Origin: Chrysomallon squamiferum
Taxonomy: Eukaryota > Animalia > Mollusca
DNA: 64,000 nt
Assembly (NCBI GenBank): GCA_012295275.1
Contig: CM022678.1
Span: 1,178,001 to 1,242,000 of the forward strand
Direction: 5' to 3'
Shown here: positions 20,711 to 59,154 of the stretch, in pieces
Numbering within the stretch: the first letter of the stretch is position 1
Layout: every line of letters begins with the position of its first letter
Made by a program: the position numbers and the translations under genes
The notes under the pieces: model-generated
What the model saw: the letters and a program-made list of their open reading frames with translations, nothing else
Database searches by the model: none
What the model was told of the DNA's origin: nothing

Positions 20711-20779
<69 letters not shown>

Positions 20780-23896: not shown

Positions 23897-23910
23897 CAAA
23901 ATGGCGCCGG
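23897..23910 (+). promoter_or_regulatory. YY1-type motif CAAAATGGCG in putative promoter copy A
   Basis: ataatcCAAAATGGCGccgg in a CpG-enriched patch, conserved in the paralogous block at 38220. Confidence 0.45.
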
Positions 23911-29086: not shown

Positions 29087-29642
29087 TATAAGAAAAGAAC
29101 ATATTTCTCGCCCTTGTATACTTCTCATATATACTTTTTGTTATATTTAGAACGTATGTAAAACGTGTTTACATTGTCACCAAACAACCGGAATAACACA
29201 CTATGTGCAAACCTGTCACTTGTGCTCGTATAAAAATATCACCTGATGTGTCTAAGTAGGCTATCCACGGAGTGAGCAGACGGTGTAGAATTTGTGACAA
29301 TTCGTTAGTTGAAAAGATTCCAATTTTATTTCGATTTCAACTACAGGTAGGTAAAACTTATACTATACTGCTATTACTACACTGTTAATTGTTTGTTTAT
29401 TTCATAGTATAAAATTAATTATTTTATTTTATTTATGTTTTGTTCTTTTTGAGGCGAACATGGACTGTAACATCAGAAACTCAGCTCACTTTCGCGTTCT
29501 CATTTTAAAATAATACATCAACAATTATGAACTAATAAAACTGCACTGTAAATAAATAAATATTATCTTTTATAATATATTTTTCATTGAATAATAGAAA
29601 GTCAAAATACATCTTTGCATAAATAAAAATATAAATATTACA

Positions 29643-29683
<41 letters not shown>

Positions 29684-30420
29684 ATAATAATAATAATAAT
29701 AGTAATAATAAATAAATCAATCTTAATAATAATATAGTAATAATAATAATAATATTAATAATAATAATGTTTGTGTATGTATTATTTTAAGCTATATTTG
29801 AGCTTACTATAAGAAAAGAACATATGTCTCGCCCCTGTATACTTCTCATATCTTTTTGTTATACTTAGAACTTATGTAAAACCTGTTTACACTGTCACCA
29901 AGCAACCAGAGTAACACACTACCTGCAAATCAGTCACATGCAAATCAGTCAGGTGTCATACAAAGAGGACGATTCACAGAGTGAGCAGAAGGTGTACAAT
30001 TTGTGACAATTCGTTAGTTGAAAAGATTCCAATTTTATTTCGATTTCTACTACAGGTAGGGAAACCTTTTACTACACTGCTATTACTTCATTGTTGATTG
30101 TCTGCTTATTTCATAGTACAAACTTAATTATGTTATTTTAGTTTAGTTTATTTACTTATGTTTTGTTCTTTTTGCGGCGAACACGGAATGTAACATCAGA
30201 GACTCGGCTCACTTTTGCGTTTTCATTTTAAAATAATACATCAACAATTATCAACTAATAAAACTGCATTATAAATAAATAAATAAATAAATAAGGATTA
30301 TCTTTTATATTATATTTTTCATTGAATAATAAGTTGAAATATATCTTTGTATAAACAAAAATATAAATATGACATACCACTACTATTACTATTACTACTA
30401 ATAATAAATAAATAAATAAA
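29087..30420 (+). repeat. Tandem duplication of a unit of about 720 bp (29087-29807, then from 29808); third partial copy at approx. 20314-20700
   Basis: Both copies begin tataagaaaagaacatat.tctcgccc.tgtatacttctc and share gagtgagcaga.ggtgta.aatttgtgacaattcgttagttgaaaagattcc. Confidence 0.85.
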
Positions 30421-30559: not shown

Positions 30560-32215
30560 CTCTGCATTCTATAAGTAATGTGTATCTTGTTACATATGAA
30601 TCCAGTAAAGATGATAAAGTAGTGCAAGGTCTGTGTATGTCAGATACAAATAAGTTTATTACACAACACATTTCAGTCATACCGCGACTATACGTAATCA
30701 CTCACTATTTGTCTGTGTGTGTGTTTGCAATTTGATTAACTGTTCAGTATGGAGAATCTTCTCTGTAGAATTATTTTTGACTAGGAGTCATGAAAGATTC
30801 ATATTAGTTTATTGTTAAATTTCTTGTATTTATTACATTATTATTATTATTTTTTTTTTTAATTAAATTACAAATTAAAACAAAGATAAACAGTACGATA
30901 TCACCTGATTTGGTAAAAGTTTGAGAACGAAGAGTTTTTTTAATTAAAATTCAGTTTTCTCTGTCGTTACATTTTAAAATAAACAAGCTCACTGCTCACT
31001 GTTGAGTTGTCGTTGTTGTTGTTGTTCTTCTTATTATTAGTATTATTATTACTATCTCTATTGTTATTTTAATGTGAGTAGAACATGTATAGACAGACCG
31101 CACGTTAACCATGTTCATGGTTGAGTTGTAAACAAGGAGAATTTGAAACCTGTATAGTTACACCATTCAAGATAATATCGCTAATACTGCCTAGTTTTGT
31201 TTGTTAAACACTAGGTGACATTTCAAAGTTTAATGTCAAACCATACTTCATAATTATTGTAGTTCTTGTTTTTATTGATTTATTATTATTGTTATTATTA
31301 TTATTAAATCGAATTATATCTTTTTATACACAACAAGAACAATAGCAATAATGATATTAATAATAAGAAGAAGAAGAATAAAAAAAAGATAAGTGCTTTA
31401 AGAGAAGCGATGTTTAAGTATAAACACTTGACAAACAAGCAGTTTGTAAAAATAATAATGTGTACTTTGTTCAGTTGTCTTATAAAATAGTCGATGGATG
31501 AATAAAATGTTTACGAAATAACCGATTATTTGAAAATACAGAACTGAAATTAATTTGGTATCGTCAAATATTGATGCTGAAGTTGCAGAAAAGGAGGAAT
31601 GATTATGACAAGCCATTAGCTCAAAAATATTTAGAAATTTTAGTCACCGTTAATAAAGTAACAAGATAATTTTTACATATTCTTTTATTATAATTATAAT
31701 CTAATACTGAGCTGCAATTTAAAACTGCTAAAATTGATATTCCTTATTTCAGTTTTATTTATTAAATAATTTCTTGTTATATTTATTAAATAATTTCTTG
31801 TTTTCATTAAATCAAATTATTCATTAAATTATGTGATTAAGAAAATTAAAAGAAAGATAAATACTGCGTTATCATCTGATATGGTAAATATTTGATAATG
31901 AAAAGTTTATTATTAATACTCAGTATTTTTCTGTCGATATATTTTACACTAAATAATGTCACTGTTACTTTTTTTTGTCACGTAGACACTAATTAGGAAA
32001 GAACAGACTTTACTGTTATACAAGCGTTTATTGTTTTATATTATAGAAAATAATATTTGGCCAGTTTTAAAAATAAATGTGATAATGGAGATTTCTTGCG
32101 TGTGTGATTGTTCATTATATATATATATATATATCCTTTATCCTCTATGTATATCATTGTCATGTTTAAATATTTCAAATATGATACCGTACAGTGATGC
32201 TGGTATGCCGAAGAT

Positions 32216-32249
<34 letters not shown>

Positions 32250-35200: not shown

Positions 35201-38200
35201 TAGGATCCATAGAAATTTGGCAAAATACTGCAGAAAACACAAGTACAACACAATAGAGATGCTTCCATGGCGAGGTAACCAAGTGAAACAAACGAGTAAA
35301 ACGCGTGATGCTGGATGGATGTTGTGTTGCTCCAACTAGCGACAGCAATTCTGAAGTTCGCTCGTAAGTCGGATTTAGGTTCGCAACTCAAAGCAATAAC
35401 TTGAGGTACCACTGTATTTATTTTATTTATTTTATCAATTATTAGTTGTTGTTTCTTTTTTCTTCGTTTTTCTGGTTTATTTGGTGTTTTTTTTCTTGTT
35501 GTTTGTGTTGTTATTTTCTTCTCTTTTTTTTAGATCATCTTTTATTGTGGAATTTCGTCTGATTAAATATCTCAACTTTATTAAATGAAAATTATATTTT
35601 CTAATTTTTTATAAGTTTCAGAATGAAATAAGAGATCATCTTTACATGATCCGACAGATACAAGTAAATGTTGTTTCTGTCTTCAGAAAGTGTAATAAAA
35701 TTTATACATATATTTATCATCATTATTATTATTATTATTAATATTATTATTATTATTATTATTATTATATTGAGAAGCCATTAAAATCATGTTTTACCCC
35801 AGTATCCACATTTTGAAATTTATTAGCCGGAGCATGCCCTCGGACACAAACATAAATTTGCGCAGTTGCCCATAAGGAGTGAATCAGTTGAAAACTGCTT
35901 TTTTTCCATGCTCGACATATTTAGAATATTGTTCAGAGGAGCATGTGATGTATACTACAATAAACAGTAGCAATTGACCTTTCTAATGCATACATTGTTT
36001 TTGTTTGGATTAAAGTGTGTTATTCTTAATTATTAGAAATGAACTTAAAGCAATGTGTCCTCTCTAAGTAAGTGGATGGGAATGGGTTGTGAAGGAAAGT
36101 ATTAGATGTCACCTTGAAAACAATAGAATGAATAGTTGCATAAATAGCAAAGAGTATTATTTATTCTTTTTATTTATTTATTTATTTATTTATTATTTTT
36201 ATTTTTCCTTGTCCTCCTTATGTTAAAAATACTGATAATTTTTGTACGAGCAAACTGATGTTAGTGATTTCAAGGGAGGTAATTTATGATCGCCGTGTTG
36301 AGTATTTTAACTAGTTAATATTTCTTTTCAGTTTATATTTCAGTTCAGTCTTTTAAATAATTACATAATTTTAATGAAATAGTGATGATGAAAGTGATGA
36401 TAATGATGATGACGATAATAATAATAATAATAAGAAGAAGAAGAAGAAGAAGAAGAAAGCTGAAGGAAAGGAAAAGAAAAAGCTTTTTGGTGAAACTTGA
36501 TAAATTGCCACATGTTGAAAGTTATCAGATGTTAACATCAAATGCTTGCATGCAGAAACTGGATAATCCTCAAGAACTAAAATGTACTTAGGTTCATATT
36601 ACAGAATATGTTAGCAAAATGTTCTATGTTTTACCCTGCATCTGAGCTGAACTCGGTCATTTCACCCCATCCAAAACCTACATCTTTGTGTTTTTGTTTT
36701 TTTTTTGTTGGTTTTTTGTTGTTGGTTTTTTATTGAAAAATTAGAGAACATCATCAACCATAACTGTTGTGTGAATAAAGAGACAGGGTTCATACATGTT
36801 TTTGAAAGACATGGAAAGTTTTGGAAATTCCTCACGGTGTTTTCCAGCACCTTAAAAGTTTTGGAAAATCAGCTATGTTACCTTAGCTACAGAAATGTTA
36901 TGAAAAATTATATCCTTGCCGTAATTTTTTTTAAGAAAAACTGGTTTCTTTCACCAACATTTAGCCCCGACCCAGCGCCCTGTTTTTGCCTGTATAATGA
37001 GGTGCCGTTATAGCCTAGGCAAAGAAAATAGTTCCGTTTTGGTACTGGCTCCGTTTCAGCCTGATCCGGAAAGATTAACTCAGGGTATCTGCGCTTGCGC
37101 AGGAAATGCGTTTAGCCCAAAACAACTATATTTTGTTTTCGGTGTTCCAGTTTTTTAATCTGTTTAATTATCAATAATACATGATGCTTGTTGCAAACTT
37201 CTATCAGACTGGCAGAGCAGTTGTGTTGTGGTAGCGCTAAGTGGACAGTGTAATTGATTACAGCACTGGTACATGCTACTTACAGAAGCAGTTTATACAA
37301 TATTTAAAACTGAAAATCATGTATAAACTGCCCCCATGTGATATTTTTCATTTACGGTTAGGGTTTAGAGCGATGAATAGGAAATGGGGAAACATTTTAA
37401 TGTACTCAGTGCTTTGATATTAATCGCGACAAAATCTCAGCCTGACGGTGAGCGCCACAAGAAACGTGTGACAAGTCTGCATCTGACCATGATCCCTCGT
37501 TGGCTGCAAATTTACCTTATCCTAGACTTTTTAATCAAATCAATACAAAATTGCATGAATTTATTTATTTTATTTTATTTTTTTTCTCTCCTGATGATTG
37601 TTTATAGTAAAAGAAATTTTGATTTTGTTACTGATGTCATAAATTGTGAAATAATGAAACTCAGACAAAGTCCAACTTATCCTAGACCCATTTTTAAAGG
37701 TTTGGGTTAAATTCAATACGAAAATTGCAACAATTTATTTATTTTATTTTTTTGTCCTTTTGATTGTTTGGAAAGTTTTGAAAAGGAATTTTTATTTTGT
37801 TACCAATGTTATAAACCCTGATGAAATTATTTCTTTTTTTCTAAAACTATCTATAATACACTAGGGAGGGGGAGACATATATCGTTCCAAGATTAAATTT
37901 GGTTTGCCAGTACCTACAAACACACGCACGCTGATATGTTACTACATGTGTTTTACCTAATCGAACGTTTTCAACTGTTAACACAATTTCCGGTCGTGGT
38001 CGCAACCCGGTTTATACTTTATGTGACTGAATAGAACCACGTGTTTTAAAATGCCGGCATGTTGTTAAATATCAGAATATAAAATGCTTAAGAAAGCTGA
38101 TAATGTACATTATTTTTTTCATTCGGTTAAAGATATAGTTCCTTGGATTTTTACATTCTTCTTCTTCTTTATGCGCGATAACTTTTCTTTGTTTTTGGTT

Positions 38201-38438
38201 ATAGGGAATTAGTATAATCCAAAATGGCGCCGGCATGTTAACTGTTTGCGATACAATATCTGTTTATTACTGAAATTCTCGAAATGTTTAGGAAATTAAA
38301 TTTAATAAAATAGTCTGAAAATATGGTCTATATATGAATTATGATTCAGCAGTCAGTATTGTAATAAAAGACATACGTCTTTTCACAGTTATTTATTTCA
38401 TGTGTGTCTACTGCTATTTTTAAATAAATAGTAGCAGT

Positions 38439-38503
<65 letters not shown>

Positions 38504-40050
38504 TATACACAGACACATATGTATGTGTGTAAAATTAATGTTTTTAATTTTACATCATTGGAGGCTAAAACTGTATGAAAAGTTTTACAAGAATGTTTGC
38601 TTTCTGTGTTAAATTTATCAGACATAGAATATAAAGTTGAGATACAGTAACTTTTTCAAATAATATTTGGCTTTCTTCTGACAGACAGCAATTCTGTTTA
38701 TGGGCTGTTTGAAAGAGTAACTTTTTCAAATAATATTTGGCTTTCTTGTAAGACAGACAGCAATTCTGTGTACAGACCTTTGGTTGGTTTTATCTGTTAT
38801 TGGGAAAGTGAAGAAGATAATTAACTAATTATCAAAGAAAATGCTCCTTTCATTAAATTATTATTCTAGAGTTATTTCCCTTATAGGTTTTGTTTCTGTT
38901 GTCCTTGTTCCTTCTCTCTGCATTCTATAAGTAAGCGAATGGTACTTTGAATATAAAAACATGTATCCAATGTCCATTCAAGTCTGATATACATAAGTTT
39001 TAGACCTGTCATTTTAGTTGAACCACAGCAGTAAACTTAATTAGTGAAATAGAATGAACTTATAAATTGTTACTGTTCATATATAAACTATATATCTTTA
39101 AGGTTACAGTGACCACTTCATATAATGAATCTCTCCACACACAGACACACACATACACAGATACATACACAGATATACACAAATATATATAGGAATTGGT
39201 TATTTTGTTGTCATATAAAATCAAAACAAAGGTTTGACCTGTTTTAAAGCTGAATAACTTTACTATTTGTTAAATAAAACAAAAACTATTTTTTTGTCAA
39301 TAAATCAAAACTGGTTTTTCAAAATGGTATTTTAAGACCTAAATCAGCAGTTAAATATTAAATGTCTGTGTATGTGTGTGCATGTAAATACACAATTGTT
39401 ATGAGTAAACACACATCCATCATGAAAACTTACTTGGTACCTAAAAGTAAATTTATCTAGTCATCACATCTTTCCTCTATGTACATTTAAATATCTTTAT
39501 AATGCTGACATTGGTGTTCAACTGATGTTGTTATAATGAGTTGAGTGATAAAACAAGTTTACTGAGATAATGAATTACTACAAATCTCAAAACAAGATCC
39601 AAAACACCTCATTTCTTGCTTGCTCAGTAGTCCTAGCTACTAGTAAAACTATACTGAGTTATAAACATGTTTTTTATTTTCTAATTTTCTTATTGTTTCA
39701 TAATCAAGTATTAACAAATGAATTTAACAACAACAATAATAATAACAATAATAGTTTTAGTTTCACACACATGTAATTTATCTTTCTAAGTCTTAGATAA
39801 ATTGTAATCCTACATACATCTACATAAACTAGATGACCCTGTAGTAAAACAGTACGCACAAGCACATTGTGTTTCTACATAGTCATTTTGATTTTGTCAC
39901 TCTCTAGTTCATTTTATTTTCTTGATATTTAATCATTTTAATTTTCTTCATGTCTAAGTTGTTAGATTTCCTGTGTATAGAGGATTTTTTGGAGAAAAAA
40001 ATATGTAGTAACTGTTTGTGACAAATTTCCTTTTTATTAACTGAAATTCT
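30560..40050 (+). repeat. Segmental duplicate B, upstream region of the NLR-like gene
   Basis: Same collinear blocks as duplicate A, with private insertions such as approx. 36800-37800. Confidence 0.75.
38220..38233 (+). promoter_or_regulatory. YY1-type motif CAAAATGGCG in putative promoter copy B
   Basis: ataatcCAAAATGGCGccgg, identical core to 23897 while the flanks have diverged. Confidence 0.45.
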
Positions 40051-40247
40051 GTGTAAGAAAAGATAAAATAATTCATCAGTGAAACTAAACATACAACAAT
40101 TTTGATATGGAAAAATTCTTTTAGAAAAGAAAATATTTATGGTATAATATTTTATTTATTTTATTTTATTTTCTAAATGAAAATTGACACAAATATCAAT
40201 AATACATAAAATTTGAAAACATCTATTTTGTTTTGTTCTGTTGACAG

Positions 40248-40535
40248 GACAGAAGAGTTTCATGATCAGTGAATGACAAATGGTTTAACATAGAACAGCT
40301 AAAATCTGAAGATGGGTTAAACTGAATTGTAAGTAAGTAAATTATTTGAGAGTAATGTATCACAATAATAAAAAAGGAAAATGTATTACTTGACAATATT
40401 AATTTAAGAAGAAAGTTAAATCAGTATCTAATTTTTGTATTGTTCTATTGACAGGACAGTAGAGTTGTATGGTCAGTGTCAGAAAACTGGTTTAACATTA
40501 AACAGCTAAAATCTAAAGATGGGTTAAACTGATTT
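40248..40535 (+). other. Two tandem 81-bp exon-like units (40248-40328 and 40455-40535), probably 5' UTR exons
   Basis: Each has ttgacag| and |gtaagtaag; sequences are similar; the first has stops in all three frames. Confidence 0.5.
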
Positions 40536-42029
40536 GTAAGTAAGTAAATGTTTTGTTTATTTGAATTACTTACTTTTACAAACAGAACCAGAAACACACA
40601 TACATATACATATTTCAAATTTCAAGTGTAAAAATACTAAAATGTAATATAAGTGTACAATGTACAGTACAAGACTGATAAAACTTGGTCCAGGTTTTAT
40701 TGAAAAATAATTTTTGATTCTTGTTGTGGTTTGATACTTATATATCTTTCTTTAGAAATTTTTAACTCTTAGCAGGTTTCAAACTTTACATGAAATATCT
40801 TATAAGATTTGGAATGAAGAATGTAGCAGATTGTTGAAAACTGAAGCCTGAAAATTATCAAAGTATGTTTATAAACAGAGAAATAGAGAAAAATTATCAT
40901 CGAATATTTATTTAACAGACTTGTCTCCCTGTTTTGAAATATTACAAATGTTGATAGTGATTTATTTAAAAACTTAAAATTTTAAGAACTTCTAAATAAG
41001 TAAATAAATTACTATATAATTAAATTGAATACAAATAAATATGAATAATCTACTAAGAAAAAAAAGAGAAAAACACAGCACAGGAGAGTGACAGTATAAT
41101 ATACACTTGGAAAATGTTTTAACACTGTATTAGAAGACAATGTTTTGTATTATTATTATTTTTTGCACAATATTGTCGAATAATTACAATTGCTATTTAA
41201 CACTAATAACAAATCATTCATAAGTATGGATCTGCAGAGTTCATAAAATAGTTTAAGAAATTGTTTCAGAGAGAAAATGTTACTTTGAGTATCTAGATTA
41301 CATCTGTAGTTAAAGGGTTAAGTGACAAGTAAACATTCAACTGACTTCAACACCTGACTTGTCTTTACACTTACATATTGAATTGTCAGATGGTCAACTA
41401 CTGTCATTCCCAGTGCTAAGCTGATTCCACTTTCATTGTATATAAAATGCTTGAGATACACTGATGTGCTACAGTGGATTCAAAACTGTCTCAAGACTGG
41501 ATTCATGATGTCCTGTTGCAGGTTTTGATCTGTTGTCCTGTAGTTTTGATCTGTTGAATGTATTCTTATTATCTGTTATCTTTGTGTTTATGATGTTCAT
41601 CACTGTGCCAAGTTCACACTGAATGTTTTATCTGTGGTAGACAGTGGAGTTAAACATCTATATGTAGCATGTGAGTATGCTGCAGTTTGAGAAAAAAAAA
41701 AAAACATGGAGACATAATACACTGACCTCTCACAGTAAAATCAGTTGTAACTGTCATTCAGAAACAAGAAACATTCTGTTGTTAATCATCACAAAGTATT
41801 AATTACTTGTCATATTTTGCCACTCATTTATATTTCCTCCAGGTGTATATTGGTGATATTTCCATTTGTATCATTTACATCACATAATTTACTAGAGTGA
41901 GAGTATAAATAAAACTATTCAGATATTATCTGTATAGTTATTTTGTTTATATAATTTAATACAAATGACAAAACTAATAATATAATTTAGTTGTTACTAT
42001 TCTGGTTATTATTATATTTATTACATATC

Positions 42030-43086: not shown

Positions 43087-46000
43087 TTTTGAACTGGAAA
43101 ATAATGTGTAAATAGAATGTAGTAAATGGGGGCGTTAAATAAAAATATTTTATTGCACGTTAGTAAGAGACAGTGATTATCTAAGTATCCACAAGAGAAA
43201 TAACGAATTATGAGCCAAGGTTTGTTAGATCAACTTACTATCGCACAAATTAAACATAGCAAGCGTGTAGAATTAGTAGTGTTAGCAGAAGAAAGGAATA
43301 TTTCATTTGAGGGGTCTAAAACAGTAGCGGAGATCAGAGATAAGATAATAGACAAATTATTTCCAGATCATACTGAACAGAGTGAAATGGAAGGTGAGAA
43401 AGAGATAGAAAATGGAGATGATGAAATCATGGAAGAAATTTCAAGGCTGGGGACTGTATTAGAGAGTGGTAGTTTGTCTATGAATCAAAAAAATAGAATT
43501 ATAGAAATTATAGCTGGAAGAAAAATGAATTCAAAGGAAAGAAAAACAATTAGACAGAGAATTGGAAGAAAAATTGTTAGATAGAGAGTTTGAAGTTACT
43601 AATCTTATAACGGTTCATAAACATAGAATGGAATATAGAAAAAGTAGTTTAAAACAGAGACTAAGACACAGCAGTTTCAAAATTAATGAAGCATATCTGT
43701 GGGTTCCCATGTTTAAAGAAGTTAAGGTAGATCGATTCTTTCAGTTATTTGAATGGAATGCAAGGAAATTAGACTGTTCTGAAGACAAATGGTCATTATT
43801 AGCACAAAAATAAATTAAAAGGGAAGGCCAATGACTTGTATAATTCTTTAAGTGAGGAGAATGCTAAAGATTATCATAAATAAAAAGAGGAAGTGTTAAC
43901 AGCAAACCAGCTAACCAGTGAAGCATATAGACAGCAGTTTAGAAATTTTAAAAAACAAGACTTATTGTGACATTCTAGCGAAAAAAGCAGGTTTATTAGA
44001 TATATGGTTAAGAGCCCAGAATGTCAGTGAAAAGTTTGAAGAATTAAGAGAATTAATGATTTTATAAAAATGCAAACGATTGTTACCTTTGCCTATGCTG
44101 GTTCATTTAGAGGACCGAAATATCTGTAATTATGACAAAGCGGCAGCCACAGCTGATCACTACTCTTTGTAGACAAACTTTGAGTCAACTGGTAATCGAC
44201 TTGTAGGACAAGTACTTCAGCATTCGTCCAGTCCTGGGTCAGTTGATAAGAGATTGTAGCCAGGCTGAGTCCCATCCATCAACAGGTTATAGCCATTCCA
44301 AGTTATTTGCTGGGGCTAAATCTTTTCAACCTAGATGGAGATTTTGTCACATGACTAATCATTTAATTGCGAATTGTTTTAAGCGGAAAAGAGATAATGA
44401 TAAAGTTGTTCAGAGGGTTAAGAATTTGGAGACAGTTAGGTTGCTTGACATGCCAAGTAGGAACAAACTTGACACCTATCTGTCTACTGGCGAGATTTGC
44501 GATGTGTTGCAAACAGATATTCCTGAGTCATTGACGATTTTCAGAGATACTAGGGTAGAGCAAAGTTTAATACTTGAAAATGCCCTAAATAAAGTATTCT
44601 ATACACAGACAGGAAGAAGTGTGATTATAGGTGGAGCGTGTATGACCATTCCATTAGTGTTTCTGCATTCGAAATTTGTGACAGGTAATGTAGTGTTAGG
44701 AGTTATAGCTCAGTTACCTTGTGTGAATGTTGATTTGTTATTTGGAAATGACTTAACAGACAGATGTTGTCTCAAAGGTTGTGATATTTTAGAAGTAGCG
44801 GAGTTGTCTGTTGTAGCTGAACCAGAAGTTGATACATTATTATATCTGGATTGCGTTAACTACCTGATGCATGTCGGCAAAAGCTAAATTGTCAGATGTA
44901 GAACTTACAAATTTGTCTGAAACGTTTATAAGTCATTCAGCAGAGAGGGAAGCAGCAAAGCATAGTGTTAACTTATTGGCTGATACATTGGGATCACATG
45001 ATCTACTAATATGCAAGAAGGAACCAGTAAGGTGTGCGATATTTCGCGTGTGCTTGTCTCTGCAGAGATAAAAAATCTGATCAGTCATTAAACTGTTTTT
45101 GGAATAAGGTGATAGATTACAAAGAAATAGTTAATCACAAAGAATGTTATTACCTATACGAGGATGTGTTGATGAGAAAATGTAGTGAGAAAGAGGTTCC
45201 TGAGAACTGTGAGTTAATTGAACGTTATAGAATCGTATTAACTAGCAAATATCGGAGAGATATTCAGTTTATCTAATGAGAGTCTCTTTGCTGGACACCC
45301 GGGAAGGACAAAAACGTATATCAAAGTGGCAGATGATTTCTATTGGCCTGGTTTGTTTCAGGATACCAGTTATTTTGTGAGATCGTGTTATGTGAGTCAG
45401 ATCACAGGGAAGCCTAACCGAAAGATCCCACCCCTACCCTTGCAGACTATCCCTATTGTGACAGAAGCCTTTTTCAAGATATTAATTCATATGATGGGTC
45501 TACTCCCTAAAGCTACCCAAGGTAACATGTATCTGTTGATGAAAATGTGTTTTTAATGACCCGATTCCAGGAAGTTATTCCCTTGCGATCGTAATCACTA
45601 AAGCATTAACAGAATACTTTACAATGACAGGTCTGACAGGGGAAGTAACTTCATGTCAAAATTGTTCCAGCAAGTGATGGCTCTGTTAGAAACATACCAG
45701 GTACTGAGTAGAGCATAATGGCTCTGTTAGAAATACACCAGGTACTGTGTAGAGCATACCAGCCCGAGTAACAAGGCGCTTTAGGACGTTTCCACCAAAG
45801 TTTAAAAAGTATGCTTACGTGTTTTTGTAAAGCAAATGACAAAGACTGGGAGCAGTGCATGCCTTATGTGCTACTTGCCATCTGAGATTAAAAACAAGAA
45901 TCTCTAGGATTCTCCTCTTTTGAACTGGTTATGGACACAGACCAAAGGAGTGTCTGAAATTAATTAAGGACAGTTTGTTACAGGAACATCATTCAGAACA

Positions 46001-47049
46001 TTTACTTAACTATGTTTCAAGAATTAAAGAAAAACTTTGGCAAGGTACTGAATTATTGAAAATGCATCTTAACCAAGCCCAAAATAAAATCAAAGCCCAT
46101 TTTAATAAGAAAGCTAAGTTTAGGGAATTTCACCAAGGTGATAAAGTGTTATTATACTTACCATTACAAAAATCTTCTTTGCAATGTAAATATTTCGGAC
46201 CATATGTAATTAAATGGAAAGTGAGCACCATAGGTTACATTATAGACACTCCTGACAGGGGCAGAAAAGCCAGATTTTGTCATATCAATTTGTTAAAAGC
46301 ATATCATGTCAGAAAACCAGTACTACCATCATGTCAGCAGACGTCAACACTGAAGAGATCAAAAATCAGGATCTGGAGACCGTAGATACCAAACTGTCAA
46401 ACCCTCAAGAACGTGAAAACCTGGACACTTCATTAGATTACCATGACAACACACAGTGATTGTATTTCAACCAATCAAAGAGCACCACTCATTGTTTCCA
46501 GATGCACCAGGTGTGATGAAGGTCAGCACCCAAGATATTAAAGTGGACGATTCTGCGCCTTTGAAAGCCAATGTGTTGTGTATTACCAAATACCCAGCAC
46601 CAACCAATCAATGACAAGTGCGTTGCTTGCTAGGGATGACTGGTTAATGTCGGAGGTTCTGTGCTCAGAAAAGAGGTGAAATTTCTTTGGACGGAAGTGA
46701 AAAAGCATTTAAGCTCTTGAAAAAAATGTTGTTGAATCCCATAATGGCTGCACATGACTACCACCATCCCTTTAAACTAGCTTGTGATGCTAGTCAAGTA
46801 GGATCGGGAGCTGACATTCCAAAAAGACAAAAATGAACTTGACAAAACAGTCAACTACTTTTCACGAAAGTTTGATAATCATCAAGCATATTTCAGGAAC
46901 AAGTAACGAGCTCGCTGATTGTTGATCACGTGCTTAAATCCAAAATGGTAACTAACATTATGATTGTTATATGCTGTGTTTTCATCATGTTGAATTATAT
47001 TCGAATAATTTAATCATATCCTCTGTTGCTGTATATGTGCGTTTATGAG

Positions 47050-48225: not shown

Positions 48226-48491
48226 CTCAACCAATATGGATAACAAAAACAAGAGTTCAGAAGTTTCATCTAACAGCACAGATGTTTTGTCCACAGGCAA
48301 AATCACAGCTGTTTCTTCCTCAGACAACATCACAGGCATTTTGTCCACAAACATCACAACTTGTTGTTCTGTATGGACTGAGACAGCTGATTCTTTCTTA
48401 GACAAAAGTGTTAGTCACTCTGACATCAGATCTCAGTCTTGCTGTGACAGTACAGGATATCATTTACCACAATCTGTGTTAAGCAGTCTAG
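48226..48491 (+). CDS. NLR-like gene exon: Ser/Thr-rich N-terminal region (in-frame ATG at 48236)
   Basis: ttttacag| at 48225, G|gtaaca at 48491; open frame MDNKNKSSEVSS...SVLSSL. Confidence 0.65.
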
Positions 48492-50311
48492 GTAACACGC
48501 ACAATATTTCAGTGTTTAATGTTTTGATATTATAAGCATTCAAAATTATTTTTACTTTTGTAATCATAGAATATTTCAATATATTGTTTCTGTTATTGAT
48601 GGTAAATTCTAAACTGACAAATGTACTACTTACATTTAGAACAATGCACTGTTTCAGTATTTTGTTTAGTTCCATCTTAGGTATTAGTTAAATTGACACT
48701 TTTTAAATTTACATTGATAAAGGATTAGCAATTTAAAGTCTTTATAGCCTTTTTGTTTCACAGATTAAAATAGTAAATCAAAACACACACTGGTTACTGT
48801 TTGATTATTTCATCATGACCATTATAATTATTCGTGTTTTTCTGTTATATATTATAATAATATTCGTTTCATAGCATCTGTACATAATCACTTAAAGACA
48901 TTTTTAACATATATTGTTATATTTAATAATACTTTTTAACAAATAACAGATTGTATTAATACTGTATCCTGTCCTTACAGATAAAAACAGATATAGATGC
49001 TTGAATGTTTCAGATTTAAGAAATGTATTTACTCTGTTTCACAGATATTCCAATAAAGCAACTTGAGCAAATGCTAGCAAATATGCCTTGCTGTGGAAAT
49101 TTTCAAGTGGGAGACAATAACACTATAATTAGTAAGTTCAAAACTAAAAGTTTTTACATTTTTTTGTTTTCTCTACATTTTTAATTGATAACAGAATAGA
49201 CATGTAATGTATTCTGGCTAAAGGAGACATGTCCAAGTTCTGGAATCTGAATATATTTTGCATCCACATGCAAAATCCTTTTTTAATATATCATGTACAT
49301 ATCTTTTAATTTGACTAAGTTGTAGCATTTTCTAATATTGATGTCACCAAGTCAACACAAGAAATATATTTGTTAAAAATCCCTTAAACATTTATAAGTA
49401 GCCTGCAACAGAATACCCAACAATAACTTAGTGAAACATTCATGAATTTTATATCACAGAATTAAAACACATTCTTATGTTGATTACAGCAGGTCAGAAA
49501 TATGAAAATATATGTGTCCAGATGCTAAAAGACAATGGCAGATTAAAAACAGCCTGTAGAAGAAATATTTAGTAGAAGTATCAGTTTTATTAACAGTTTG
49601 ATATTTCATATCATGTTTCAGAGTTACAACTTTTTATTACAGTCTCATGTACACTGAGATAGTAATGTTTGTGTGTATGTATATAGACAGACACACAGAC
49701 AGACAGATACTTATAAACTTAATGTAGGTTTTGTCCTGTTTTGGCACCGTGATCCTACTGGAAGTGAAGTTCACAATTAACAGACAAGTTGACATCACCA
49801 AGCTCACCCAGTAACTGATTAGAAGTCAGTTTACTGCAGTGCTGACCTTCAACCAAATACATAGCTAAATTTTACCATGAGAAAACAAATTATTTTTCAT
49901 TAAATCAAACACTGACTAAAATTCTTGTCATCCATTAGTGTTGTCTTATGTAATCTATCTCGACCAGTAATCAATACATTATCCAAAGATGCTCTGATCT
50001 GCTATTCTCTGCTGTTAGGATTTTTTTGTCATCTTTGTTTCTCTGGACACTGATTCTAAAATCGTCATTTTCATTATCTTATTGTGTGAATATGCATGTT
50101 TTAGCATTTTTAATTAAAACCAACATATTGATGTAGTAATGGTCATTTAAAAAAATAATAATAAAGATAATTTTTTTATTATTTTGTTTTTAAATAATTT
50201 GTTTTCTCCATTTTTCTAAAAACAAGGTCATTTATTCATAGTCAGGTCATACTGTCATTTCTCCTTTAGCAGTGGCTGGTGAATTACGCAAAAACATGCG
50301 CATATAAACAC

Positions 50312-50351
<40 letters not shown>

Positions 50352-53300
50352 TTTTAATACTATATGTTCAGACAGACATTTTTAGAAATAATGCTTGTAG
50401 GCTGTGAAGTTTAATAATTTATTTTTCTATATTTGCTGCAATACAACCATTGGTAAAACATAATTAAATATGAGCACAGATAAAAATCACTAACAAATAA
50501 TGTCGCTGTGGAAACAACTAAGATAAAAATTGAGACTTATTTAATACATAACAGATCTACATGTCAGATTAATCATTAGTATTTAACTACCAAATACTAT
50601 GACGAACACATGCGAACACAGACATAATACATACATACATATATCTATATATATCTACCACTACAAAGGGTGCACAAATTGCGCGAACAATCGTTTAGTT
50701 CACATGAAGATGCTCAAAACAGTCCTTGCGTAACTCATTTTGTATTTGTGCAAATTTTGTGCTATGCTGAAATTAAACCACCATTCACCACATCAACACC
50801 ATTGGCCACTGAGTGACATTCTTTGGTGTTCCGTCTTTCTGCATTGCTACTTGAACAACGTCAGTGCTGCAGAGGTTACCCCAACAAAACCAAAACCTTG
50901 TTAACTAAGAATCTGTAATTTTGAAATCAACATTAATATTTATAAAATAAGTAATGTCATTTTTTTTTCTTTGAGTGAGGGGAGTAGAAGAAATGAAAAG
51001 TTATTTTAATTGTTTTTACCTGTTTGGAAATAGCAGCCACTTCTACTGGTGCAAGGCTGGAAATCAAGGCATTTTGTCTCATTTGTGATGTTCTCGTTTC
51101 TTCGGTATTTAATTGAACAATGTCAAGAATGACTAATTATTCCCTTCAAATTATCAAAGCAACATTAATTATCTATAAGACTCTCCTGCTTTTACCTATC
51201 AATTTAAATAAATTACACTTTATTATATAAAAAAACAACAACAAAAAAACATATATGTATTAACGATAATAATTTATTCCAGTGATAATCCTTAGTTTAT
51301 ATTTATTGTTTATAATTTATAAAATAAAATACATATTCTTTAAAAAAAGAGATTTATGGAAAAGAAAATGATTATGCAAGTAATTTTTGGATAATCCATT
51401 AATGGGTTAAGTAAAATTTAAACACTCAAACATACATAGGCACTTAAAAACATACAGACAACTAAACAGACAGACATTAACAGATACATATTCAGGCATA
51501 GCATAAGTTCTGACTGAGAATATCTTCTTAAACTGTTAAAATAACTCAACATGAATTAAACATGACTATATGCCTGTCATTATTGTCATCTGTAAATACT
51601 AAAGATACTGCAAAGTATACGTAACAACAAGAACAGTAATAATAAACAGTGGGGCATCTAATGCAGAACCAAATCAGAACCCTGCAACGGGCGTAACACT
51701 CTTCCCCCAAAAGAGCACTCACTAACATACAGTCCTCCCTGTGTCGGGTAGATAGATACCCGATTTGTCTCGGCTCTAAGGGTATTCAGGGAACAAGGCC
51801 ATATATGTATTTATATTTACTGTTAAATCATTAGAAATACAAAAACACAAGTTTAGATTTAAAGAATATTTGTATTATATGATCTAACAATAGTTATTTA
51901 CCGAGTAAGCTTACAGTGCTTACACTGCCAATTACAAACAGTTTTATGCCATAAAATTGCTCTCACCACATACGTGAACATGTGGGGATATTAAAGATGT
52001 TTTAACTAGCACATCCCAAGATGTACTTGAATATGCAAGAGTATCAAAATAACGTACTGCGTAGTGGGACGTTGACGTAACAATCAGTTAATCATAACAT
52101 TGGTTTTGACCTCAAATTCCCTCTATTCTCACCCATTGTTTTAGAGATAATAAATCACAGTTAACTTCGATCAGTCTGATTTCAGATTGCCAGATTTTCC
52201 AAAATAATGGTTATACTATTTCAATACATAAACCTATACATAAACACATACATATACATATTTAGGAAAGACCACATAGGATGTCTTATAATATTCCTTT
52301 CCCAGAGTGGTGCTGAGATTGGTTGGATTCATCAGCAGACATGCAGACGCTCACGCTTATATATTTCTTAAGGAAATATATTATGTATTAAAGAGGAGAC
52401 TGGTTGTCTCTGTGACACCAACAATAACAATAAACAAAAACATTAGTGATAAGAAACACTGGCAGTAGTTTTGAAGGTAGTAGGAGTAATTATATAAGAT
52501 AAATAACAAAGATGGTGTCAAGGCATTTCCCCACAGATATTCCCCCCATTACAGTTAAATAAATAGTTTTCAAAGATGTTCATAAACAGAAAGAAAATCA
52601 TCTCGTTACATTTATTCCATCTACAATTGTGACATCTTATTATCATCATTAAATTCTGATGAACTAAAATTATGACAAAAAAACTACTGCTTTATTTCAA
52701 AAACTTCACATCTGATGAACAGTTAAAAACTATTTACATTGTAAACTATGTTTTAAACAGTCAATAACAGATACTATTTTTTTGTTTATGTTGTGATACA
52801 GAGTCTACCAGGTCAGTGTTAAACTCAGTTGACTGGAGAGTCTATGTTGAAACAAGAGCAGAGAAAAGAGGTGTTGCACTTTTGAAGAAGAACGGTGTTG
52901 TCATTGTGATAGGATGTCCAGGTTCAGGAAAGACAACTCTTGCTTTGAGCATGATGAGACAGATGGAAAAAGAAGAAGAAAGAGTATCTTACTTGCTGAC
53001 TCATCACTCTGAATTCAATGACATCCCTGTATCTAAAAATAAGAAATGTGTTGTTCTCATTGATGATATATTTGGTAAGACTAATCTTGTTTCAGAATTT
53101 ATAGACTCATGGAAACTAAAATTTCCAATGATCTGGAATCTTGTTCACGACAGATCTTTGAAATGTATTATTACTTTAAGAAAACAATTATTTTCAGAAA
53201 GTGAAACTAGTTTGAAGGAATTTGGTCTGTTTAATGAGAAACATGTTCTTGATCTGCACAGTCATGACTATTGTCTGGATTATAATGAAAAGGAAGAAAT

Positions 53301-56300
53301 TCTAAACAAATATCTCAAACAAAAGAATGTTAAAATGGATGAAACTGATAAAATGATTGTCATTTACAATTCATGTACAGAGTTAGGATTTCCTCAGGTG
53401 TGTGTGTATTATGTTAATTCAAGTGATGCACAAAAAAGAGGAGTTGACTTTTTTGTGAAACCTGTTGAATATCTCACACAACAGCTGGAATATTTGAAAA
53501 AAAAGTCAAAACTTTACAGATCAATTACCTGGTTCTACTGTTGATCATGTTCAAACAAGGCAGTCTCAGCATTGATTCACTGGACCCTTTTGAAAATGGC
53601 CCTGACAGTGACATAATGAAATTAATAAGACAACTAGAGCAAGTCTGTTTGCGTCTAGAAAACACTGGTCTCACAGTTACAAAGAAAACAGCTGATCAAA
53701 TGTGTGGTACATATTTGAAGTGTTATGACAATAAATACACATTTATTCACCAGTCAGTGTTTGACTGTTTGTTTCTGATGTTTTCATCACAGTTTCCAAA
53801 GAAAGCAGCAGAGTTGCTAGAAGTGTGTCCTGTCTCCATGTTGTTAGAATATATTGTGACACCTGGAGTGTCTAACAAAAGTCACATTACAATGACTGTG
53901 AGACCTAACTGCTTTGATGTTCTTGCTCGCAGATTTACTGACTTGTTGGCATCAGACAATTTCATAGAAATTATTTCACATCCATCTCTGAAAGATGAAG
54001 AGTTTCTAAAATACCTCATAGAAGAAAAACAGTTTTATGGTAGGTTGTCTGAAATCTTACAGCAAAGACTATCTGGAGAACATCAAAAGCAATATTGTTA
54101 TATATCATCTGTACATGTAAACTCAACTGAAATTTCATATCTTCTTGACAATGATTCTAGGTACGGATTTCCTATCAGTCTTGATGAAAATGTAATAAAT
54201 TCAAAATCTGTTCCAAGTGAATGTATCGTGAATAGACACAGAACATTGTCAAAATATTTCACATCAAATCTGTGTCAGATGGAATTGTCAAAACTGCTTA
54301 AAATGATAATATCAAGATTTTTCACATCAAAACTGTTTGAAACGGACTTAATAGGCATGAAAAAAGAACTTTTGGATATTTCTTGTTTGTTTGGTGATGA
54401 AGATGTTGTGGGAATGTTGTTAAAATCAGGTGTTGTTCCAACATTTCATACACTGACTGCAGCTGCTTGTTCAAAAACAGACAGTGCTACCGTACTCAAA
54501 GAACTGTTACTGTATAAAAAAGAGATGAAATTGAAGAACTATTCACAACTGTTACTTGTTTCTATTTATTCAGGTAACATGAACATTGCCTGTCTGTTAG
54601 CTGACATGATAAACAATGAGAAACAGAACAGTGAAATCAAGGAAGAAGCTGTGAAACTTTTATTGGTTAGATTCCACAGACAAGTAAGACTTAAATCAAG
54701 TTACACGGCAGATGGCAAGTATTTGGAGAACTCAGAGACTTCTAAAGTTGTTGATGTATGCCGACTTTTTAAGAAACTGGTTACCATTGATATAATAAAC
54801 AAAACTAAAGACATTGCTGTCATTGCTGCTGGTCACAGTACTTCAAATGTTATAAAAGAAATAGTAAAACTGAAACCTGATTGTATAAATGATGAGAACA
54901 GAGATAAAGTACTTTTAGCAGCAGCAATGTGGGGATCTACTGACACAGTGAATTTTCTCATTGAGCAGCAATATAATGATACAGACGAGGACAACTGGAA
55001 GAAAGGTGAAGTACTGAAAGTAGCAGTGATGTTTAACAGTGCAGATGTTGTTCAGTGTCTACTTGATAAAGGAGCTGATCCTAATGTGGATGTAGCTGTT
55101 AACAAGAATTTTGTTCAGTTGTTTAAAGAGAAAACTGAAGTGGAAATGTTGACTTCAGACTCACCTCTCCATATTTCAGTTCTGCTTGGTGACTTAAATA
55201 TGATAAGATCACTGATAAAGAGAAAAGCTGATGTTAATGCAGTAAACAGTGAGGGAGAAACTCCACTTCATGAAACTGTAAAAGCAGTGTCACACAAAAA
55301 GGAAGTAGCTTTGTTGTTACTAGAAAATGATGCAGATATTAACATAAAAGATACACGAAAAAATACAGCATTGCACATAGCATCTCAAATTGACATAAAT
55401 GTGATGAAAAACATAGTAAAGAAAGGCGTTGAAATAAATGTAACAAACACTGCAGGTGAAACTCCTCTTTTTATATCCTTAAACACCAACAGACGACAAA
55501 TAGCTTTGTACTTACTCAAACAAGGAGCTGATCCTAATATAACAGACACTCATAACAATTCTGTTTTACATTTAGCAGCTAAATATGGAAATATAGAAAT
55601 TGTGACCGCACTGATTGAAAAAGGTGCTGATGTAAATATTAGAAACTGTAGAGATGAAACTCCTCTTTTTACAGCTCATCAGTATGGAAAGAACCAAGTA
55701 GTTTTGTATTTACTGGAACATGGAGCTGATCCTACTTTAACAGATAGTGATAACAATTCTGTTTTACACCTAGCAGTTCAATTTGGAAATATAGAGATTG
55801 TGACAGCACTGATTGAGAAAGGTTGTGATGTAAATATTAAAAACAGCCACGGTCAAACTCCTCTTTTTGCAGCTCTTCATTTCTGTCTGCATGATCCACC
55901 TCTGAATATTGAAAAATATAAAGTATTTTTCTGTTTACTGCAAAATGGAGCTGATCCTAATTTAATAGACAATGATAAGAATTCTGTTTTACACCTAGCA
56001 GCTGAATTTGGATATAGAGAAATTGTATCAGTACTGATTGAAAAAGGTGTTGATATATATATTAGAAACAGTCGAGGTGAAACACCTCTTTTTACTGCTG
56101 TTAAGTGTCAACAGAACAAAGTAGTTTTGTATTTATTGGAATATGGAGCTGATCCTAATATAACAGACAATGATAACAATTCTGTTTTACATTTAGCAGC
56201 TAAATATGGAAATATAGAGATTGTGACAGCACTGACTGAGAAAGGTTGTGATGTAAATATTAGAAACAGCCAAGGTCAAACTCCTCTTTTTGCAGCTCTT

Positions 56301-58954
56301 CATTTCTGTCTGCGTGATCCACCTCTGAATATTGAAAAATATAAAGTATTTTTCTGTTTACTGGAACATGGAGCTGATCCTACTTTAACAGACAATGATA
56401 TCAATTCTGTTTTACATTTAGCAGCTAAATATGGAAATATAGAAATTGTGACAGCACTGATTGAAAAAGGTGCTGATGTAAATATTAGAAACTGTAGAGG
56501 TGAAACTCCTCTTTTTACTGCTGTTAAGTGTGAACAGAACAAAGTTTTGTATTTACTGGAACATGGAGCTGATCCTACTTTAACAGACAATGATAACAAT
56601 TCTGTTTTACACCTAGCAGCTGAATTTGGATATAGAGAAATTGTATCAGTACTGATTGAAAAAGGTGTAGATGTAAATATTAGAAACTGTAGAGATGAAA
56701 CTCCTCTTTTTACAGCTGGAAAGAACCAAGTAGTTTTGTATTTACTGGAACATGGAGCTGATCCTACTTTAACAGATAGTGATAACAATTCTGTTTTACA
56801 CCTAGCAGCTAAACAAGGATCTTTTGGAATTGTGACCGCACTGATTGAAAAAGGTGTTGGTATAAATATTAAGAACAACAGAGGTGAAACACCTCTTTTT
56901 ACTGCTGTTAAGTGTCAACAGAACAAAGTAGCTTCGTATTTACTGGAACATGGAGCCGATCCTACTTTAACAGACAATGATAACAATTCTGTTTTACACC
57001 TAGCAGCTGAATTTGGATATAGAGAAATTGTATCAGTACTGATTGAAAAAGGTGTAGATGTAAATATTAGAAACTGTAGAGGTGAAACTCCTCTTTTTAC
57101 AGCTCATCAGTATGGAAAGAACCAAGTAGTTTTGTATTTACTGGAAAATGGAGCTGATCCTACTTTAACAGACAATGATAACAATTCTGTTTTACATTTA
57201 GCAGCTAAATATGGAAATATAGAAATTGTGACCGCACTGGTTGAAAAAGGTGCTGATGTAAATATTAGAAACTGTAGAGGTGAAACTCCTCTTTTTACTG
57301 CTGTTAAGTGTGAACAGAACAAAGTAGTTTTGTATTTACTGAAACATAGAGCTGATCCTACTTTAACAGACAATGATAACAATTCTGTTTTACATTTAGC
57401 AGCTGAATTTGGATATAGAGAAATTGTATCAGTACTGATTGAAAAAGGTGTAGATGTAAATATTAGAAACTGTAGAGATGAAACTCCTCTTTTTACTGCT
57501 GTTAATTGTGAACAGAACAAAGTAGTTTTGTATTTACTGGAACATAGAGCTGATCCTACTTTAACAGACAATGATAACAATTCTGTTTTACATTTAGCAG
57601 CTGAATTTGGATATAGAGAAATTGTATCAGTACTGATTGAAAAAGCTGTAGATGTAAGTATTAGAAACTGTAGAGATGAAACTCCTCTTTTTACAGCTCA
57701 TCAGTATGGAAAGAACCAAGTAGTTTTGTATTTACTGGAACATGGAGCTGATCCTACTTTAACAGACAATGATAACAATTCTGTTTTACATTTAGCAGCT
57801 AAATATGGAAATAGAGAAATTGTGACAGCACTGATTGAGAAAGGTTTTTATATAAATATTAGAAACAGCCAAGGTCAAACTCCTCTTTCTGCAGCTCTTC
57901 ATTTCTGTCTGCGTGATCCACCTCTGAATATTGAAAAATATAAAGTATTTTTCTGTTTACTGGAAAATGGAGCTGATCCTGCTTTAACAGACATTGATAA
58001 CAATTCTGTTTTACAGTTAGCAGCTAAATATGGAAATATAGAAATTGTGATAGCACTGATTGAAAAAGGTGTAGATGTAAATATTAGAAACTGTAGAGGT
58101 GAAACTCCTCTTTTTACTGCTGTTAAGTGTGAACAGAACAAAGTAGTTTTGTACTTACTAGAACATAGAGCTGATCCTACGTTAACAGACAATGATAACA
58201 ATTCTGTTTTACACCTGGCAGCTGCATTTGGAAATATAGAAATTGTGACAGCACTGATTGAAAAAGGTGTAGATGTAAGTATTAGAAACTGTAGAGGTGA
58301 AACTCCTCTTTTTACAGCTCATCAGTATGGATTTAACCAAGTAGTTTTGTATTTACTGGAACATGGAGCCGATCCTACTTTAACAGACAATGATAACAAT
58401 TCTGTTTTACACCTAGCAGCTGAATTTGGATATAGAGAAATTGTATCAGTACTGATTGAAAAAGGTGTAGATGTAAATATTAGAAACTGTAGAGGTGAAA
58501 CTCCTCTTTTTACAGTTCATCAGTATGGATTTAACCAAGTAGTTTTGTATTTACTGGAACATGGAGCTGATCCTACTTTAACAGACAATGATAACAATTC
58601 TGTTTTACACCTGGCAGCTGCATTTGGAAATATAGAAATTGTGACAGCACTGATTGAAAAAGGTGTAGATGTAAATATTAGAAACTGTAGAGGTGAAACT
58701 CCTCTGTTTACAGCTCATCAGTATGGAAAGAACCAAGTAGTTTTGTATTTACTGGAACATGGAGCCGATCCTACTTTAACAGACAATGATAACAATTCTG
58801 TTTTACATTTAGCAGCTAAATATGGAAATATAGAAATTGTGACCGCACTGGTTGAAAAAGGTGCTGATGTAAATATTAGAAACTGTAGAGGTGAAACTCC
58901 TCTTCTTACTGCTGTTAAGTGTGAACAGAACCAAGTAGTTTTGTATTTACTGGA
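48226..58954 (+). CDS. NLR-like protein: Ser/Thr-rich N-terminus, RHIM-like motif, nSTAND3-type P-loop NTPase, helical region, long ankyrin array; exons 48226-48491, 49045-49131, 52802 to beyond 58954 (frameshift at 53497-53504; 3' end in gap)
   Basis: Three GT-AG exons join in frame through two phase-1 introns. Walker A GCPGSGKT, Walker B VVLIDDIFG, YVET and IITLR motifs, GFPQVC, FIHQSVFD; 17 pairs of near-identical ANK repeats. Confidence 0.85.
49045..49131 (+). CDS. NLR-like gene exon encoding a RHIM-like motif
   Basis: tttcacag| ... A|gtaagt; 87 bp, phase 1-1; DIPIKQLEQMLANMPCCGNFQVGDNNTII; compare human RIPK3 RHIM NCSGVQVGDNNYL. Confidence 0.75.
52802..53544 (+). CDS. STAND (nSTAND3-type) NTPase domain, 5' part of the large exon
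   Basis: gatacag| at 52801 (phase 1); VYVETRA...VVIVIGCPGSGKTTLA...VVLIDDIFG...CIITLR...GFPQVC. Confidence 0.88.
53505..58954 (+). CDS. Winged-helix/helical region and ankyrin-repeat domain (-1 frame continuation of the large exon)
   Basis: Uninterrupted frame of more than 5.4 kb: YLVLLLIMF..G, FIHQSVFD, then diverged ANK repeats from approx. 54350 and highly similar ones from approx. 55500. Confidence 0.92.
55500..58954 (+). repeat. Coding tandem repeat with a unit of about 198 bp (two ankyrin repeats), 17 copies visible
   Basis: aattctgttttaca..tagcagct... and gaaactcctctttttac.gct... recur every ~198 bp at very high nucleotide identity. Confidence 0.95.
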
Positions 58955-59154
58955 NNNNNNNNNNNNNNNNNNNNNNNNNNNNNNNNNNNNNNNNNNNNNN
59001 NNNNNNNNNNNNNNNNNNNNNNNNNNNNNNNNNNNNNNNNNNNNNNNNNNNNNNNNNNNNNNNNNNNNNNNNNNNNNNNNNNNNNNNNNNNNNNNNNNNN
59101 NNNNNNNNNNNNNNNNNNNNNNNNNNNNNNNNNNNNNNNNNNNNNNNNNNNNNN
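58955..59154. other. Assembly gap (200 N)
   Basis: Run of N that interrupts the ankyrin array. Confidence 0.99.

Follow-up and report, generated by a model that had tools for sequence, protein, structure and literature searches.

A RHIM-like motif ahead of the NTPase in a candidate nSTAND3-ankyrin immune receptor of the snail Chrysomallon squamiferum

We analysed a stretch of 64,000 nucleotides of the Chrysomallon squamiferum genome (assembly GCA_012295275.1, contig CM022678.1, positions 1,178,001 to 1,242,000 of the forward strand; hereafter the window), which is animal DNA with a GC content of about 30%. Positions 48226 to 58954 of the window hold the coding part of a gene for a protein with a short RHIM-like motif, an nSTAND3 nucleoside triphosphatase (NTPase) and a long ankyrin array. 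Judged from its sequence, this protein would be an intracellular immune receptor that signals by amyloid-like stacking, a reading to which we assign a probability of roughly 0.55. The broader assignment of the gene product as a STAND immune receptor is very likely correct, and the evidence supports the RHIM-like motif as the only recognisable N-terminal signalling element of this STAND-type protein.

The RHIM-like motif and its transcripts

The motif lies in an 87-bp exon between a Ser/Thr-rich exon and the NTPase exon (Table 1). An earlier sequence-only reading had compared its core with the QVGDNN of human RIPK3, and alignment with the PDB sequence gave six identical residues (49104-49121), an identity that arose in 0 of 100,000 shuffles of the 114-residue N-terminus. 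The extended RHIM pattern of the literature arose in 28 of 100,000 such shuffles and has one occurrence among the 127,996 residues of the six-frame translation of the window. With a scoring model built from the human and mouse RIPK3 RHIM alone, for which p values were obtained from 20,000 shuffles of the N-terminus, the motif scored 32.5; the remaining 2,049 residues of the protein reach at most 14.5, and no 13-residue segment of 150 homologues exceeds 23.5. An Asn-x-apolar extension is present downstream of the tetrad, and the upstream flank is of low complexity without a Pfam domain. A phmmer search of PDB with the 28-residue exon peptide gave 0 matches. The distance from the tetrad Gly to the first Gly of Walker A is 43 residues by coordinates, in agreement with the earlier estimate. 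The motif is statistically convincing at the sequence level, and it probably serves as a working RHIM-type interaction element.

Motif-exon variants and joints were read from contigs of runs X5, X6, X7 and X8, from which RNA ends and RNA levels cannot be read. X7 is RNA on record, whereas X4 and X5 are without a library record but contain GT..AG joints. The core tetrad of RHIMs is V/I-Q-V/I-G (PMC12119088). That the snail tetrad begins with Phe had been raised as a caveat; it holds for the assembly and largely falls for the transcripts, given that most RNA contig depth over the exon is of the Val type. The substitution 49101 T>G, which yields Val and a canonical tetrad, was present in contigs of all four runs, at depths of 18.9/18.9 (X5), 18.3/27.2 (X6), 13.2/16.1 (X7) and 22.3/25.9 (X8). 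Phe-type contigs were present in X6, X7 and X8, and those listed retain the upstream intron. A Val contig of 761 nt from X7 shows one difference over the first coding exon and runs on through the intron of this locus; because it is collinear with the locus, the Val form represents either an allele or a duplicate of very recent origin. The canonical tetrad is kept in paralogue-type contigs despite differences at neighbouring codons.

The 87-bp exon, which had been predicted together with its two splices, was confirmed by RNA contigs of two studies (X5 and X7) that contain the 48491/49045 joint. The boundaries of 48226-48491, 49045-49131 and 52802 onward are canonical (AG/GT), with a continuous phase-1 frame. 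An in-frame alternative donor at 48407 in the first coding exon was used in one X8 contig. Contigs of X5 and X8 link 49131 to 52802 through 33 extra nucleotides (31+2; 11 codons, in frame); this microexon was looked for in the intron 49132-52801 of this locus and was not found, and the contigs with the insert therefore come from paralogues. These contigs show that members of the family carry the motif exon and the NTPase exon on one transcript, and we infer the 49131/52802 joint at this locus.

In transcripts with the joints 40328/40455 and 40539/48226, an in-frame stop precedes the ATG at 48236. Given that the upstream exons carry in-frame stops, position 48236 is the start of translation, and the 114-residue N-terminus has nothing folded ahead of it. 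A hidden upstream exon encoding a death fold was thus ruled out, the upstream exons being untranslated region (UTR), and the earlier claim that no death-fold or TIR domain is present stands. No Pfam family above cut-off was found in the first coding exon (48226..48491).

Read-through of the donor at 49131 may represent pre-mRNA or a short isoform, the product of which would be a protein of 131 residues with the motif and no NTPase. Contigs ending near 50115-50140 adjoin a repeat, and a 3' end there is only weakly hinted. In read-through contigs of X4, X5, X6 and X8, the change 49136 G>A at the +5 position of the donor travels with a 51-bp deletion (49168-49218), and it is possible that this variant is an allele favouring the motif-only product.

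Table 1. Features of the receptor gene in window coordinates.
Feature	Position	Strand	Evidence or remark
5'UTR first exon (likely), 3' end	30026..30055	+	exact match to a loose end, before 40244, in one X4 contig; GT donor next; start undefined
5'UTR exon	40248..40328	+	GT..AG joint 40328/40455 in X7, X4, X5; stops in the frame of the coding sequence
5'UTR exon, 85% copy of the 40248..40328 exon (self-match)	40455..40539	+	GT..AG joint 40539/48226 in X7, X4, X5
First coding exon: ATG 48236, Ser/Thr-rich low-complexity spacer, 27-nt triple repeat	48226..48491	+	
87-bp exon with RHIM-like motif, symmetric phase 1-1	49045..49131	+	joint 48491/49045 in X5, X7; frame
RHIM-like motif, core tetrad 49101-49112	49089..49127	+	score 32.5, p 2.5e-4; 49101 T>G variant
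Donor read-through, 17 extra codons and stop	49132..49184	+	contigs of X4, X5, X6, X7, X8, some to ~50140
nSTAND3 NTPase: Walker A 52912-52935, Walker B 53051-53068, helical lid	52802..53504	+	PF20720 E 2e-27
A8 run with assembly frameshift	53497..53504	+	open reading frames; RNA contigs; homologue alignment
Helical region after NTPase and first divergent ankyrin repeats	53505..55445	+	aligned with Gigantopelta P0003 over 625 columns at 34% identity
Ankyrin array: 35 units, types A (17) and B (18) alternating	55446..58954	+	ends at N gap 58955-59154

The NTPase, the ankyrin array and the gene family

The NTPase was assigned to nSTAND3, as had been proposed, by the Pfam profile PF20720 (96.2 bits against a cut-off of 27.2). 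Its Walker A and Walker B motifs are intact, and a repeat sensor is present at the C-terminus. The protein is not a canonical animal NLR of the NACHT-LRR type: the NACHT profile gave 19 bits, under its cut-off of 26.7, the sensor consists of ankyrin and not of LRR repeats, and a death fold is absent. A structure model of the NTPase, with a predicted local distance difference test score (pLDDT) of 84.7, retrieved AAA+/STAND folds, among them Avs5 with Z scores of 12.1 and 11.6 (9jap and 9nc9), which tied with DnaA and ClpA and was not separable from them in these searches. For the region after the NTPase (53505-55250), the single-sequence model was poor (pLDDT of 45.5).

By the names retrieved for 20 of the 150 homologues, the nearest proteins come from the vent gastropod Gigantopelta aegis (nSTAND3-ankyrin proteins with 44-51% identity), followed by those of abalones and bivalves. 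The NTPase has 851 matching representatives at E<=0.001. Three word-indexed searches for homologues gave 2, 1 and 9 proteins, the third search being confined to proteins of more than 1,904 residues, and yielded one new family member; ESM Atlas gave no usable match. In a quick tree of 87 of the 150 homologues, the protein grouped with its Gigantopelta homologues (Shimodaira-Hasegawa-like approximate likelihood-ratio support of 99), and the position of P0120 beside it is a long-branch placement. Run X1 is DNA-like; its summed depth reaches about 3,000-3,600 over the NTPase exon, compared with 33-49 for long unique contigs; this sum is not a copy number, and the excess together with the many variant contigs shows that the receptor gene belongs to a multi-copy family.

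The N-termini of relatives were surveyed with Pfam in 28 proteins chosen because these regions were long or bore a motif. We found a caspase domain (1 protein), DED (3, below cut-off), CARD (1), HEPN_DZIP3 (7), SAM (2), DUF4559 (2) and Ig (1), and no Pfam domain besides the NTPase in the remaining members of this set. Domain swapping before the NTPase is the effector slot typical of STAND immune receptors.

Pfam Ank covered 34 stretches of the array, in support of the ankyrin sensor that the sequence-only reading had described; its term hypervariable was an overstatement, the units being near-identical and shuffled. Mean nucleotide identity was 0.89 among the 17 type-A units and 0.86 among the 12 of 18 type-B units without an indel. 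Differences between units peak at positions 12-17, at which a few cassettes are reused in irregular order, with ratios of nonsynonymous to synonymous differences (pN/pS) of 1.3 and 2.4 from pairs that are not independent. Enrichment at six positions known from designed ankyrin repeat proteins was not significant (P of 0.135 and 0.233). In its repeat identity the array fits the high internal conservation (HIC) class of fungal NLR repeats, which are 80-100% identical and are found in animals too (PMC13449251). The array beside the assembly gap may be misassembled.

Proposed signalling and alternative explanations

Oligomerisation of STAND receptors is driven by ligand and nucleotide. By extension from general STAND biology and the helical assemblies of Avs5, a ligand bound to the ankyrin array would release the NTPase, which would then oligomerise. 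On the same grounds, motifs clustered on the flexible Ser/Thr spacer could nucleate a cross-beta stack. In the weakest step of the scheme, this stack would recruit a RHIM-bearing partner, most plausibly a molluscan RIPK1-like kinase, and lead to NF-kB activation, cell death or both. The identification of the partner as RIPK1-like is tentative and, taken by itself, less likely than not. The sequence-only reading had implied a partner still to be identified, an implication weakened by the RHIM-bearing RIPK1-like kinase already described in molluscs (PMC12119088). Given such a kinase, an unknown killer of the HeLo type is not required as partner, and NF-kB may be the output.

Related stretches were sought in the 94 of 150 homologues with enough upstream sequence (89 at a stricter limit), the models of the others being truncated or short. 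Visual inspection placed RHIM-like stretches before the NTPase in Gigantopelta (P0005, P0008, P0012), abalone (P0031, P0136), freshwater mussels (P0060, P0112), Solemya (P0057, P0123, P0137) and scallops (P0085, P0097). The RIPK3-derived motif was detected at p<=0.05 in 7 of 54 N-terminal clusters (binomial P of 0.018), compared with 2 of 51 and 1 of 48 in controls, and a profile trained on molluscs detected 6 of 46 held-out clusters (P of 0.026; control, 1 of 43). The three best whole-protein matches to the RIPK3-derived motif lie about 105-120 residues before Walker A. Support above chance for related motifs before nSTAND3 in other molluscs is modest. The motif is diversified or patchy across the molluscan relatives, that of the window protein appearing the most RIPK3-like among the sequences compared. 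At least two motif-like stretches stand in tandem before the NTPase in P0066 and P0123, as in ZBP1 or HET-s, and P0085 has one such stretch after a DED-like region.

Several observations weigh against amyloid-like signalling by this receptor. The Pfam RHIM profile matched neither the 87-bp exon nor 14 homologue stretches in searches whose HMMER filters discard matches weaker than about E 0.1. The tetrad is preceded by Asn at the position where RHIM, PP and BASS3 share Gly (bioRxiv 2020.01.06.895854), although mouse RIPK3 likewise has no Gly there in the PDB alignment. Among relatives, the QxG-type pattern by which the sequence-only reading had proposed to follow the motif was present in 2 of 94 N-termini (shuffle maximum of 3), and the strict tetrad in 3 of 94 (shuffle maximum of 4). 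A de novo expectation-maximisation motif on the 54 clusters was overfitted, with a log-likelihood of 217.7 against 193-212 in four shuffles, and an iteration seeded with the window motif took 2 of 89 proteins against 0-4 in shuffles. About three of the seven clusters positive for the RIPK3-derived motif look like chance, and P0090, one of the three best matches to that motif, has the match inside a DED. The closest relatives (P0001, P0004 and P0006) have beta-rich stretches that are only loosely similar. On the favourable side, a profile of 10 molluscan motifs placed RIPK3 chains at ranks 2-5 of 177,635 PDB sequences (E of 0.16-0.72), but this ranking is partly circular and without a significant E-value, the motifs having been picked by eye for their likeness to RHIM. 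As for the locus itself, the direct 49131/52802 joint, the second of the splices proposed earlier, did not occur in the 15 of 16 and 15 of 33 joint entries that were listed. In the assembly, the NTPase reading frame (52768-53544) and the ankyrin reading frame (53469 onward) differ, a change that the sequence-only reading had missed.

The failure of the Pfam profile and the modest and heterogeneous conservation over the 54 clusters would suit an ordinary nSTAND3-ankyrin sensor, with an incidental or vestigial motif, that signals by co-oligomerising with DED, CARD, caspase or HEPN paralogues; family members with folded effectors do exist. We consider this unlikely. The six-residue identity to RIPK3 was not reproduced by shuffling, the tetrad persists in paralogue-type contigs whose neighbouring codons differ, and the relatives with folded effectors are excluded from the Gigantopelta clade of the window receptor in the quick tree.

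The frame change raises the alternative that the locus is a pseudogene or decoy copy, which would make mainly truncated products (131 residues with the motif only, or 361 residues ending after the NTPase) that buffer the RHIM signalling of intact paralogues, by analogy with Pirk in flies. In addition to the frameshift, five runs read through the donor at 49131, four of them with the weakened +5 base (49136 G>A), the listed Phe-type contigs retain the upstream intron, and neither the 11-codon microexon of the paralogues nor, among the joints listed, a direct 49131/52802 joint was seen here. The homologues, however, align collinearly across the A8 run, and 2 nt are missing from RNA contigs at 53497 (X5) or 53505 (X5, X6 and X8). 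An X5 contig (depth 5.79) is 2 nt short in the run, and its depth equals the residual depth that keeps the window bases at 53448 and 53491. We infer that this contig is the own transcript of the locus with an open frame; on the evidence of this one contig, a fixed lesion is less likely than a slip in the assembly or a null allele. Past the shift 1,828 codons are open, giving a protein model of 2,164 residues up to the N run at 58955-59154, which hides the 3' end of the gene. RNA ends and levels are not readable from contigs. We regard a decoy role as quite unlikely.

A third alternative is a pair of the fungal type, in which the motif would template the C-terminal motif of a pore-forming (HeLo/MLKL-like) or enzymatic effector, encoded nearby or at an unlinked site, and kill the cell directly. 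The position and size of the motif fit receptors of the NWD2/PNT1 type (PMC4262963; PMC12881547), and the ankyrin array is highly conserved internally, as in fungal NLRs. No such effector or partner gene was seen in the 64-kb window, which covers only about 5 kb downstream of the receptor, an absence that also weighs against the receptor reading; the neighbours are MyD88-like TIR exons and an RNase PH exon, and six other tetrad matches in the window are without coding-exon support. We judge a pair of this type improbable.

The amyloid-receptor reading extends to a wider scheme, which at present seems rather doubtful: a mollusc-wide amyloid code in which expanded nSTAND3-ankyrin receptors with shuffled repeats would have diversified RHIM-type motifs instead of death folds and would start fibrils on kinases or effectors that bear a RHIM, motif-only isoforms being inhibitory. 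If true, it would give animals their first working counterpart of the amyloid signalling of fungal and bacterial NLRs, and the necrosome motif a receptor-level ancestor state.

Elsewhere in the window, the exons of a MyD88-like TIR gene (6896-7094, ~7529-7605 and 8218-8428, plus strand), with MyD88 as best PDB matches, lie about 20 kb upstream of the first UTR exon of the receptor, to which the present data relate them by position only. An exon of an RNase PH (exosome subunit-like) gene is at 425-599 (plus strand). A broken Gypsy-type retrotransposon remnant (43204-46385, plus strand), with integrase zinc-binding and SH3-like pieces, sits in the intron that separates the last UTR exon from the coding exons. 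The receptor 5' region has decayed tandem duplicates (20313-20793, 29263-29715 and 29967-30344) that include copies of the putative first exon, and further duplicate pairs of this region are 16868-19307 with 30600-32979 and 22185-24472 with 36055-40055; no second NTPase exon was noticed among the open reading frames of the window. A short stop-to-stop frame on the minus strand (10718-10795) contains a canonical tetrad in an Asn/Val-rich context with a possible donor next to it, had no acceptor or gene evidence, and is probably a chance occurrence.

Comparison with known systems

An animal architecture of RHIM, NTPase and repeats is not new in itself, having been predicted for amphioxus BF82280 as RHIM-NACHT-repeat (Kajava et al. 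2014, PMC4262963); the sequence-only reading, which had asked for the novelty of the architecture to be checked, is weakened to that extent. BF82280, known from prediction only, shares with the snail protein a RHIM-like motif in the N-terminal effector position of an animal STAND receptor. It has a NACHT domain, whereas the snail gene has nSTAND3, a near-identical ankyrin array, a multi-copy family and RNA evidence. The combination of RHIM with nSTAND3 was not found in print, in a search judged mostly by titles and the beginnings of abstracts and with most subscription papers outside its coverage. The joining of known parts, a RHIM-like motif with nSTAND3 and ankyrin in a mollusc, appears to be new.

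Proteins with nSTAND3 and ankyrin have been listed in Crassostrea (Kaur et al. 2021, PMC8195603). The bivalve TRADD-N(+HEPN)+nSTAND3+Ankyrin proteins of that study share the molluscan nSTAND3-ankyrin core and its lineage-specific expansion, but have folded N-terminal modules, unlike the snail receptor; the term RHIM has 0 occurrences in its main text and 12 of its 13 supplement files. Avs5 (Sir2-nSTAND3-TPR; bioRxiv 2025.07.08.663546; PDB 9jap and 9nc9), experimentally an immune receptor, likewise couples an nSTAND3 switch to a helical-repeat sensor, although it is bacterial, has an enzymatic effector and is 10% identical to the snail NTPase in structural alignment.

With the RHIMs of RIPK3 and RIPK1 (PF12721; 7dac, 7da4 and 6jpd), the snail motif shares the six core residues, a Cys three residues before the position preceding the tetrad, and the Asn-x-apolar extension. 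Those RHIMs sit in kinases and adaptors, whereas the snail motif is in an NTPase receptor and does not match the Pfam profile. RIPK1 homologues with a RHIM tetrad have been described in zebra mussel and other spiralians, the RHIM of zebra-mussel RIPK1 being required for full NF-kB activation (PMC12119088). Single-residue variants of the tetrad tune NF-kB output, with none Phe-first among the variants in the excerpts of that report. PGRPs with RHIM and Imd have been reported absent in molluscs (PMC9835746).

NLR-type amyloid templating has been shown in fungi and bacteria, and the RHIM amyloids known in animals are those of kinases, adaptors and PGRP receptors. The snail gene is transcribed and open to testing: its motif nearly equals that of RIPK3, a natural Phe/Val variant pair can serve as an internal control, and a candidate partner has already been described in molluscan RIPK1. 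It also offers a signalling hypothesis for the many uncharacterised molluscan nSTAND3-ankyrin proteins without a folded effector. In common with NWD2/HET-S, PNT1/HELLP (PP motif) and BASS3/Bell, it has a short motif before a STAND NTPase, a repeat sensor and high repeat conservation; it differs from these fungal and bacterial pairs in that no adjacent effector is seen, no Gly precedes the tetrad, the motif is about 105 residues from the N-terminus, and the NTPase is nSTAND3.

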